Both the position numbers and the translations under genes were made by a program. Under the pieces are notes generated by a model, which made no database searches, was not told where the DNA came from, and saw nothing but the letters and a program-made list of their open reading frames with translations. A DNA stretch of 5,974 nt from a virus (taxonomy: Duplodnaviria > Heunggongvirae > Uroviricota > Caudoviricetes), in IMG/VR virus record IMGVR_UViG_2711768068_000006, one strand, 5' to 3'. Each line of letters begins with the position of its first letter. Position 1 is the stretch's first letter. This document shows, piece after piece, positions 1,941 to 3,878 of this stretch.

Positions 1941-3302
1941 TCAGCCGCCGGACGCACTGCCGTAGTTCACTCCGGTGATCACCGCCACCGCCGCAGTACG
2001 GCGACGACGCCAGTTGATCCAGCGCTCCGCACGGATGGCCACGCTGCCTGTCTGGAACATGGAAACCAGCTCCACCGGGGACGGCGTGGTACTGTCGCCG
2101 GTCGGCTCAGACTGCATTTCCAGTGATGCCTCGCGGGACATATCCACTGCCACGCCGCCGTCATCCGCCAGATAAATATCCGGGGCATTCACCAGCACCA
2201 GCTGGTCACCCACGTACTGGGAGACAATCACCGGCAGCCCCTGGAAGGAGCCACCCAGCAGGGTCATGTCCGGGTATTCCTTCTGACCCAGCGCATTTTT
2301 ACGCATGGACAGTGCCAGGGCATTGGTGCTGGACATCAGCCAGACCGCACCGGTGGGCTGCAGGTTTGCTGCCACAAACTGTCCAAACGCAGCCTCTGCA
2401 TCCGCATCCGGGTTACCGGTTGATGCCGTGCCCTTCACATCATGGGTGATGGACGCCGGGGAGACATCTGCCACTGCGGCTTTTTTCGGGTCCACAAAGT
2501 CTGTATCCAGACGCGCCACCACCGCTTCCGCCAGCGCATTACGGACCAGTGCATCAGCAGCCGGACTGGAAAAACGGATCAATTCTTCCGTCAGTACCGC
2601 AATGGCCGACACCTTCGCATGACTGAAGGTGATGGATTCAAAATCAAACTTCGTCAGGGGTTTTGCCTTACCCTCACCCACCCAGCCGGCAGCACCGCCG
2701 GACACCTGGGCGTGCACACGGATATTGAATGGCACCTGACGAAGTGCAGGGATCCCGCCCTGACCAAATCGCCCGATAATGGTCTGCGGACGCAGGTAAT
2801 CAATAAAGTCCTGTGCGTATTCCTGATATTCAGACAGGCTGCCTGCCCACTGCGGATCCGTGGTGGTCCCCGCGCCCACTGCCGATTTCAGGACATGATG
2901 CAGACGACTGTCATCCGGATACTGACGACGGGCCACTTCCAGGGCTTCAGATCGGACGCCTTTAGCCGCAGCCAGCGATTTGGCAAAGCGGGCGAAGCCA
3001 ATCCCCTTATCCAGTTTCTGCTCCACACGGATCACCGGCGCAGAAGCCACCGCGGCCACATTCCCGTTACCGGCCTGTTTCACCGGCTGCGCCGTGGCGG
3101 CCTTACCGGCTTCCAGTTCACGCAGGCGCTTCAGGTGCGCATCCACCTGACGGATTTCCGCTGCGGTGTTGTCGTAATGCTCTTCCTCCTCCACATCCAG
3201 CGTGCGCCCTTCCTCTGCGGCTTTGGTCATGACCTCCTCAAGGGAGGCTGCCAGCGCCGCACGCTTGTTTTCAAAACTTTTAATCTGTTCGCCAATATTC
3301 AT
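1941..3302 (-). other. Major capsid protein portion (delta domain plus HK97-fold body) beginning at an in-frame internal ATG (approximate upper boundary)
   Basis: The internal Met at residue 193 (codon near plus 3300-3302) is preceded on the minus strand by AAGGAA with about 9 nt of spacing, read from ...TTTCATAAGGAAAAGACCATAATGAAT. The sequence from this Met onward looks like a complete capsid protein of about 453 aa. Confidence 0.6.
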
Positions 3303-3878
3303 TATGGTCTTTTCCTTATGAAAAACGGTTGTTGACTGTGCCGCAGCGCCGGCAGAAGATGCGATTTTCACCACCGGTTTCCGGTTGCCGGACGCGGCAG
3401 AAAACGGGCGGTCGTAAGATTTAATGGTCCGGATGGTGCATTCCGCATTCGCGGGCACGGTGACGGCAGACACCTCCATCAGTTCCCAGCGCAGAAAATG
3501 CAGTCCGCCTCCGTCCAGAAAGGTGTATTCATGGGGACGGAAGCCCACGGACAGCCCCCTGACCAGCCCGGTCTTAATGGCCGCCCAGACCTCATCCAGC
3601 CGGGCAGCCAGTTGCGACGGCATATCCGGTACGGGCTTCACCAGTGTTGCCGTGATTTCCAGCCCTTCGCTGACCCGGCGCACCGTACACTGCCCCACCG
3701 GGCGGGAATGGTCATGCTGCCAGAGAAACGGTATCGCACTGCCAAACTCCGCGCCCTCCGGCTCCAGGATGTCACCATCCCGATCCGGAGAAGGCGTTGA
3801 CGCAATCCCGGTGATCACCCGTTCATCCTCACTGAAGGATTTCACCGTCAGCAGGGAACAGGCCCGTTTAAGAGTCAC
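1941..3878 (-). CDS. Fusion protein: HK97-family prohead maturation protease (N-terminal ~165 aa) joined in frame to an HK97-fold major capsid protein with N-terminal delta/scaffold-like domain (645 aa total)
   Basis: Track ORF with a GTG start at 3878 preceded by a strong AGGAGG with 5-nt spacing. The N-terminus carries HK97 prohead-protease signatures (VITGIASTPSPDRDGDILEPEGAEF, LWQHDHS with a candidate catalytic His, GLSVGF with a candidate catalytic Ser). From about residue 193 (MNIGEQIKSFENKRAALAASLEEV...) it reads as a typical capsid N-terminal charged coiled-coil delta domain, followed by about 350 aa of capsid body. Confidence 0.85.
   Translation of the reverse strand: MTLKRACSLLTVKSFSEDERVITGIASTPSPDRDGDILEPEGAEFGSAIPFLWQHDHSRPVGQCTVRRVSEGLEITATLVKPVPDMPSQLAARLDEVWAAIKTGLVRGLSVGFRPHEYTFLDGGGLHFLRWELMEVSAVTVPANAECTIRTIKSYDRPFSAASGNRKPVVKIASSAGAAAQSTTVFHKEKTIMNIGEQIKSFENKRAALAASLEEVMTKAAEEGRTLDVEEEEHYDNTAAEIRQVDAHLKRLRELEAGKAATAQPVKQAGNGNVAAVASAPVIRVEQKLDKGIGFARFAKSLAAAKGVRSEALEVARRQYPDDSRLHHVLKSAVGAGTTTDPQWAGSLSEYQEYAQDFIDYLRPQTIIGRFGQGGIPALRQVPFNIRVHAQVSGGAAGWVGEGKAKPLTKFDFESITFSHAKVSAIAVLTEELIRFSSPAADALVRNALAEAVVARLDTDFVDPKKAAVADVSPASITHDVKGTASTGNPDADAEAAFGQFVAANLQPTGAVWLMSSTNALALSMRKNALGQKEYPDMTLLGGSFQGLPVIVSQYVGDQLVLVNAPDIYLADDGGVAVDMSREASLEMQSEPTGDSTTPSPVELVSMFQTGSVAIRAERWINWRRRRTAAVAVITGVNYGSASGG
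3384..3878 (-). other. Prohead protease domain of the fusion ORF (approximate boundaries)
   Basis: Residues 1 to about 165 of the 645-aa product contain the protease motifs listed above. The lower boundary is approximate. Confidence 0.7.

Follow-up and report, generated by a model that had tools for sequence, protein, structure and literature searches.

The lambda C/Nu3, Mu I/Z and herpesvirus UL26/UL26.5 genes each use one reading frame with two initiation sites, giving a protease joined to an assembly domain from one site and the assembly domain alone from the other. In systems of the lambda C/Nu3 type, the shared assembly domain brings the protease into the procapsid. Here, we analyzed a stretch of viral DNA of 5,974 nucleotides (nt) from the Caudoviricetes (IMG/VR record IMGVR_UViG_2711768068_000006), referred to below as the window, which carries an open reading frame (ORF) of 645 amino acids (aa) in which a prohead protease is fused in frame to an HK97-type major capsid protein. 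This gene is probably organized as a nested in-frame pair similar to lambda C/Nu3, in which the full-length product would bring the protease into the procapsid and an internal start would supply free delta-capsid protein. We establish here how the gene is built, the folds of its parts, and that both the fusion and the initiation signals at the junction are conserved; we infer that both products are made, and likewise their ratio and the cleavage events.

The protease-capsid fusion

The gene and its elements are as follows.

1941 to 3878, minus strand: full-length ORF, 645 aa plus TGA, 69.0 kDa (GTG at 3876-3878, TGA at 1941-1943)
3884 to 3889, minus strand: Shine-Dalgarno (SD) sequence AGGAGG, 5 nt upstream of the GTG, anti-SD duplex energy of -10.3 kcal/mol
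3417 to 3830, minus strand: prohead protease domain, aa 17-154, S78/assemblin fold
3714 to 3716, 3549 to 3551 and 3474 to 3476, minus strand: invariant residues His55 (in LWQHDHS) and Ser110 (in GLSVGF), both candidates for catalysis, and Glu135
3303 to 3416, minus strand: linker, aa 155-192, predicted to be disordered, hypervariable in length and sequence among relatives
3312 to 3317, minus strand: internal SD-like AAGGAA, 9 nt upstream of the internal ATG and within Lys-Glu codons, duplex energy of -6.2
3300 to 3302, minus strand: internal ATG (Met193), proposed start of the nested delta-capsid product
3280 to 3339, no strand: trough in guanine-cytosine (GC) content (0.33) with weak RNA structure, the deepest of the ORF (about 0.6), on the internal ATG
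1941 to 3302, minus strand: nested in-frame ORF, 453 aa, 48.2 kDa, delta domain and major capsid protein
3084 to 3302, minus strand: delta (scaffolding) domain, aa 193 to about 265, helices 195-223 and 229-262
1959 to 3011, minus strand: HK97-fold capsid body, aa about 290-640, by Foldseek and Pfam Phage_capsid

An earlier note on this DNA had described a single 645-aa ORF starting at a GTG behind AGGAGG, which matches the positions above exactly. The N-terminal part is an intact-looking prohead protease, and profile searches as well as fold comparisons agree with both domain assignments. A Pfam search, a check that the note had named beforehand, returned Peptidase_S78 (PF04586; aa 48-152, 34.7 bits against a cut-off of 21) and Phage_capsid (PF05065; aa 386-635, 53.1 bits against a cut-off of 24.2), both above their gathering scores. 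The stricter TIGR01543 equivalog scored 46.5 to 49.5 bits, below its cut-off of 59, and TIGR01554 matched aa 204-584 with 78 to 80 bits (cut-off of 27.5), or 79.7 bits on the delta-capsid segment alone. In PHROGs, a 626-position family covers the whole fusion; phrog_617 spans aa 1-639. The His in LWQHDHS and the Ser in GLSVGF, put forward in the note as catalytic candidates, correspond to His55 and Ser110, which are invariant, together with Glu135, in a 51-sequence alignment (36-53% identity) and in a 34-sequence alignment. By analogy, His55 and Ser110 would be the catalytic residues. No other protease gene is present within the module.

The AlphaFold2 model of the full-length protein (predicted local distance difference test, pLDDT, of 82) consists of a compact N-terminal domain (aa 17-154), a linker, two helices and an HK97-type body. 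The linker is longer than the approximately 25 aa first estimated, with low confidence across aa 155-190 (pLDDT 33-43). In contrast, the delta helices (aa 195-223 and 229-262) reach pLDDT values of 93 to 97, and the first of them begins two residues past Met193. When the full-length model was queried with Foldseek, only capsid proteins were retrieved, among them those of Bxb1, D3 and HK97 (E values of 4e-15 to 1e-9, probability 1.00), and none for the protease. In a separate model of the N-terminal part, the fold of the protease domain matches T4 gp21 and assemblins. A sequence search of the PDB with the protease domain, both as a single sequence and as a profile, gave nothing meaningful (a chance match to HU, E value of 0.86). 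Judging from the model, cleavage of the delta domain would likely occur in the poorly predicted segment at about aa 263-290, in which a stretch of low confidence covers 267-279.

The fusion itself is known, widespread and already annotated; what the annotations lack is the conserved internal start. Proteins 99-100% identical to the ORF carry the names "phage major capsid protein" or "major head protein/prohead protease", the latter already in use in GenBank (AP012539, FJ184280, AJ556162), and gp03 of phage PAJU2 is annotated as "prohead protease fused capsid protein". The novelty that the earlier note implied for the fusion was thus overstated, with counterparts also in Gifsy-2 and actinobacteriophages (see below). 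The same 645-aa ORF occurs in about 90 deposited phage genomes at 95-100% identity, and database proteins that are 73-78% identical are fusions of 644 to 647 aa in Salmonella, Enterobacter, Klebsiella, Serratia, Kosakonia and Pantoea. Among representatives of clusters at 50% identity, 12,577 matches were found; over 130 of the top 150 (38-54% identity) span the whole fusion, at 630 to 680 aa, and a few capsid-only proteins in this set begin exactly at the Met193 position. Since the same architecture is found in thousands of database proteins, it is not due to chance.

To these protein matches, a survey of 80 genomic loci from GTDB species representatives (38-77% identity) can be added. The junction stop in homologous loci, a comparison that the earlier note had suggested, is absent from 71 of the 80, which are fused, and the remaining nine are split at the same point, three by an in-frame stop and six by a change of frame. 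The loci surveyed come from Gamma-, Beta- and Alphaproteobacteria. By this sequence comparison, the fusion is an old and frequent arrangement, shared by most proteobacterial relatives down to 38% identity.

The internal start and the nested product

The earlier note had further proposed that an internal Met (MNIGEQIK), with AAGGAA about 9 nt before it, opens a complete capsid protein, and that two products would arise from one frame. The spacer is indeed 9 nt, and stand-alone homologous capsid genes start at this Met. The idea of two products gains strong comparative support from the fused loci, in which the site carries a start codon and an SD core, is rich in AT and is weakly structured. At the N terminus of the delta domain, all 71 have a start codon (63 ATG, 5 GTG and 3 TTG): Met is replaced only by Val encoded by GTG or by Leu encoded by TTG, and a non-start codon occurs in none. 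As only GTG and TTG replace ATG, selection appears to act on initiation and not on the amino acid. An SD core lies 5 to 12 nt upstream of the internal start in 70 of the 71 fused loci. It leaves a protein footprint (K-E-G, E-E-G, K-K-G or K-E-K) in an otherwise hypervariable linker, encoding AAGGAGGG, GAGGAGGG or AAAGGA.

These signals were compared with control codons, namely, the other in-frame ATG, GTG and TTG codons of the same genes, using one representative per lineage below 60% identity. The SD core is present in 20 of 22 lineage representatives, versus 11% of 758 control codons (binomial p = 2e-17); as the loci are phylogenetically related, such p-values are upper bounds on significance, but the pattern extends over Gamma-, Beta- and Alphaproteobacteria and some further phyla. 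The median anti-SD duplex energy is -5.75 kcal/mol at the internal starts, compared to -7.3 for the true 5' starts and about -2.6 for the controls. In addition, the mean GC content of the relatives drops from about 0.62 to 0.31-0.49 between positions -30 and +24 of the internal start. In the window, the minimum free energy of the 60 nt at the internal start is -5.8, versus an ORF mean of -18.2, which places it among the weakest 1.3% of such segments. The corresponding folding in the relatives ranks, in the median, among the weakest 5% or so across 23 lineages, and 18 of the 23 fall below 10%. These sequence patterns argue that the internal start is under selection. A scan of the window for sigma-70 promoters gave no site, so nothing points to the nested gene having its own promoter.

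The nine split loci bear on the junction as well. Three have an in-frame stop (L056, L059 and L079) and six have their halves in different frames (L073, L075 to L078 and L081), and in all nine the capsid gene starts at the Met193 equivalent with the same signals. On a rough neighbor-joining tree built from the capsid portion, the split loci do not cluster but are spread out, which points to repeated switches between the fused and split states. In most split relatives, the free protease terminates in a conserved sequence, ..VVKLD..AR.RAKPFVIR.I.R, that is missing from the fused forms; this tail can be clearly recognized in L075, L076, L078 and L079 and has diverged in L081 (junctions at about 3950-4180). 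The HK97 protease reportedly docks via its C-terminal region. By analogy, the tail of the free proteases is a candidate capsid-targeting peptide and would be the counterpart of the C-terminal targeting region of HK97 gp4.

In the mechanism that we propose, initiation at the 5' GTG behind AGGAGG would yield the 69-kDa protease-linker-delta-capsid protein, because the open frame forces read-through, and initiation at Met193 behind AAGGAA would yield the 48-kDa delta-capsid protein alone. Both products would assemble together, as their delta and capsid parts are the same, and each protease would thereby enter the interior of the procapsid covalently tied to a shell subunit. The covalent tether would stand in for the C-terminal docking peptide of free HK97-type proteases. 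After assembly, the protease would cut off the delta domains, including its own tether, and thereby free itself, leaving a mature capsid protein of about 39 kDa. The fusion would presumably be the low-abundance species, self-released by delta cleavage, with the ratio possibly set by the two initiation sites only. The start strengths are inconsistent across relatives, most of which have an ATG at the 5' start and many of which have the stronger internal SD; the ratio is therefore not readable from the sequence. A weaker 5' GTG as a general ratio-setting device was considered and rejected, since 70 of 79 relatives have ATG at the 5' start.

The two-product reading has to be weighed against an unlikely though not trivial alternative, in which only the full-length fusion is made, every capsid subunit carries a protease, and the SD and ATG are relics or serve another role, such as SD-induced pausing between domains. 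The open frame speaks for it, as translation from the 5' start must continue into the capsid part, and so does the interconversion of fused and split forms, which makes relic signals conceivable. However, relics should decay in a freely varying linker, and the start and the SD are kept almost without exception down to 38% identity. The codon, moreover, shifts only to GTG or TTG and never to ATA, ACG, AAG or CTG, and pausing would need neither a start codon nor an AT-rich, unstructured region nor the canonical spacing from SD to start. A second explanation, that linker recoding by frameshift or termination releases free protease and the fusion is a tolerated by-product, with free protease and free capsid as the functional products, is very improbable. 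Split relatives do work with free protease, and some enterobacterial linkers contain A-rich runs; against this, no conserved slippery sequence or stimulatory structure was seen in the hypervariable linker, the window has no Rfam match, and the fused forms lack the C-terminal tail of the free proteases. The absence of this tail has led us to argue that the tether substitutes for it. Finally, the fusion could be a recent accident in this strain, through loss of the protease stop codon (the alternative named in the earlier note) or through a sequencing or assembly error, with two genes as the normal state. HK97 has separate genes and the window bears other lesions in the portal and TerL genes. 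The chance of such an accident is nevertheless negligible, given the near-identical ORF in about 90 phage genomes, the presence of the module in 1255 of 5426 complete Escherichia coli genomes (about 23%), and fusions at 73-78% identity in Salmonella, Enterobacter, Klebsiella and Serratia and at 38-54% identity in many other bacteria. The occurrence of the same fusion across relatives refutes both the error and the recent stop-codon loss, the latter being rejected because the fusion is the majority state down to 38% identity.

Several points weigh against the nested gene pair nonetheless. No N-terminal sequence, proteomics or ribosome-profiling data on the products were found in the literature, and signals inherited from an ancestral split gene would look alike for some time after fusion. 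By our estimate, the interior of a T=7 procapsid would take about 415 copies of the 21-kDa domain and could probably hold a protease on every subunit; with that much room, free capsid protein is no physical necessity. The relatedness of the loci, noted above, also counts here, as does the internal spacer in the window, which at 9 to 10 nt is among the longest of those usually seen. In addition, this prophage copy may be defective (frameshifted portal and 16-aa TerL deletion); its capsid gene is 99-100% identical to that of functional phages. A full-text literature search found no internal start described for a protease-capsid fusion; Effantin et al. 2010, Duda et al. 2013, Uchiyama et al. 2009 (PAJU2) and an HFTV1 ribosome-profiling preprint lay outside its reach and may mention one.

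The head module and this prophage copy

Every gene of the window lies on the minus strand, and the order in the direction of transcription is TerS, TerL, the 645-aa ORF, a 73-aa ORF and portal. The genes around the fusion are as follows.

Cut by the window edge, minus strand: TerS
5555 to 3942, minus strand: TerL
1896 to 1675, minus strand: 73-aa ORF between the capsid gene and portal, with a 55-nt overlap with the portal start
1729 to 365, minus strand: portal

This order is permuted relative to HK97 (TerL, portal, protease, capsid), as TerS, TerL, protease-capsid, small ORF(s) and portal follow one another here, and it is the same as in PAJU2 (L083, 51-7058). The 73-aa ORF (1675-1896) is hypothetical in RefSeq and belongs to phrog_829, of unknown function, with no Pfam match. 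A 297-aa ORF runs antisense to the capsid gene (2442-3335, plus strand) and probably exists because the coding strand opposite to it is rich in GC. Between TerL, which stops at 3942, and the GTG of the fusion gene, a gap of 63 nt contains a terminator-like hairpin, GAACCGCTCCGGCGGTTT, followed by a T-run (3900-3917, minus strand); the count of terminator-like sites in the window is not above chance expectation.

At the DNA level, the window, which belongs to an E. coli prophage, shares 96-98.7% identity with the head module found in the long-tailed Stx/lambdoid phages Pankowvirus 2851, YYZ-2008, 1717, Stx2a_WGPS6, BP-4795 and JLK-2012. The E. coli genomes that contain the module carry it in a median of three places per genome.

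Two genes of this copy deviate from the references. Compared to phage 2851 and the O157 references, TerL has an in-frame deletion of 48 nt (16 aa; 537 versus 553 aa) near 4618-4620, which falls between the ATPase and nuclease domains. TerL and TerS are more divergent upstream of the deletion point (94.5% versus 99.2% identity). The portal gene has a 1-nt deletion compared with almost all other copies: where phage 2851 and nearly all E. coli sequences contain six consecutive G (G6), the window contains five (G5; 365-385, minus strand). In the G5 form, the portal ORF is 454 aa long and its TGA stop overlaps, as ATGA, with the start of a downstream ORF, MTERELSII..., and in the G6 form both ORFs are joined as one "portal protein" of 859 to 862 aa (reference L001, 5151-7730). 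The exact 71-nt sequence of this junction was found in one of 1055 genomes, and the same portal lesion in strain MEI003 is labeled "frameshifted" by NCBI (PGAP). PHROGs has stand-alone families (phrog_1289 and phrog_8767) as well as a fused one (phrog_2271) for the portal region, and the C-terminal part of the fused portal matches no Pfam family. The portal region is thereby a second fused/split junction of the module, and the two-gene layout of the G5 form is the same as that of PAJU2 gp06/gp07.

Comparison with known systems

The fusion belongs to one family with its homologs in the Stx phages 2851, BP-4795, YYZ-2008 and Stx2a_WGPS6 (95-100% identical) and with PAJU2 gp03 (48% identical over the full length). 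Their annotations show one coding sequence (CDS) with no internal start marked. HK97 gp4 and gp5 share the protease family (Pfam S78) and the capsid family with its N-terminal coiled-coil delta domain. However, they are two genes, and the protease-capsid gene described here lies between TerL and portal. The maturation protease and HK97-like capsid of actinobacteriophage clusters EE, EL, AM/AU and AN likewise reside in one gene, an arrangement that the papers concerned call unusual in passages that do not discuss internal initiation (PMC7302621, PMC5513430). We liken these fusions to ours by architecture and not by sequence relationship. The same architecture also appears as a class named by NCBI, "prohead protease/major capsid protein fusion protein" (NCBIfam NF045541). 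Membership of the 645-aa ORF in NF045541 was rejected, as it scored 54 bits against a cut-off of 525 and belongs to a different family.

In the lambdoid prophage Gifsy-2, protease, scaffold and capsid are stated to lie in one ORF, according to passages that cite Effantin et al. 2010 (PMC12315714, PMC8538268). We find that this gene (L085, 4472-6562) encodes ClpP (PF00574), a scaffold and Phage_capsid_4. The 645-aa ORF is not a tripartite gene of this type, having an S78 protease and not CLP_protease, though it would work alike; the gene order of Gifsy-2 is canonical, unlike that of the window. The different protease and capsid families point to an independent fusion. Directly after the ClpP domain, at Met221 (about 5132), Gifsy-2 has GAGGAG-N9-ATG, with the weakest local structure and the lowest GC content among the start-type codons of the gene. 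All 63 unique Gifsy-2-type relatives (L086-L165, 59-100% identity) have the ATG, and in each the Glu upstream of it is encoded by GAG, so that GAGGA-N10-ATG is kept across 21 different upstream sequences. From these sequences, Met221 is a possible nested start analogous to lambda Nu3. The case is weaker than that of the S78 fusion, because the peptide around Met221 is itself conserved.

The Gifsy-2 parallel suggests that the design is general. The S78-delta-capsid and ClpP-scaffold-capsid genes are unrelated and both keep an SD and a start after the protease, which leads us to lean, by a narrow margin of confidence, toward internal initiation as a general, convergent rule for head genes with a prohead protease fused upstream of scaffold or capsid. 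If so, translation initiation would set the protease-to-capsid ratio, the tether would replace the C-terminal capsid-targeting peptide of the protease, and a single stop or frameshift mutation in the disordered linker would suffice for lineages to change, repeatedly, from one of the two states, fused or split, to the other.

Roughly one in four complete E. coli genomes contains this gene family, which also occurs in prophages converting for Stx1, Stx2a and Stx2c. Its annotation is inconsistent ("major capsid protein", "prohead protease" or "capsid and scaffold"), and a single CDS is given each time. Should the nested start prove real, the main structural protein would be absent from current annotation, and protease-to-capsid stoichiometry would become a simple, testable question of two initiation sites. 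The fused and split relatives form a natural series on protease targeting, by covalent tether or by C-terminal docking peptide, with relevance to the engineering of HK97-type cages and encapsulin-like containers for cargo loading.

Compared to lambda C/Nu3, the nested part here is the delta domain plus the capsid protein itself, with no separate scaffolding protein, the protease has the S78/assemblin fold and not the ClpP-clan fold of lambda gpC, and the two products are proposed from the sequence. What the two systems have in common is a single ORF with an N-terminal protease, a C-terminal assembly domain, and an in-frame start with its ribosome-binding site at the domain boundary.

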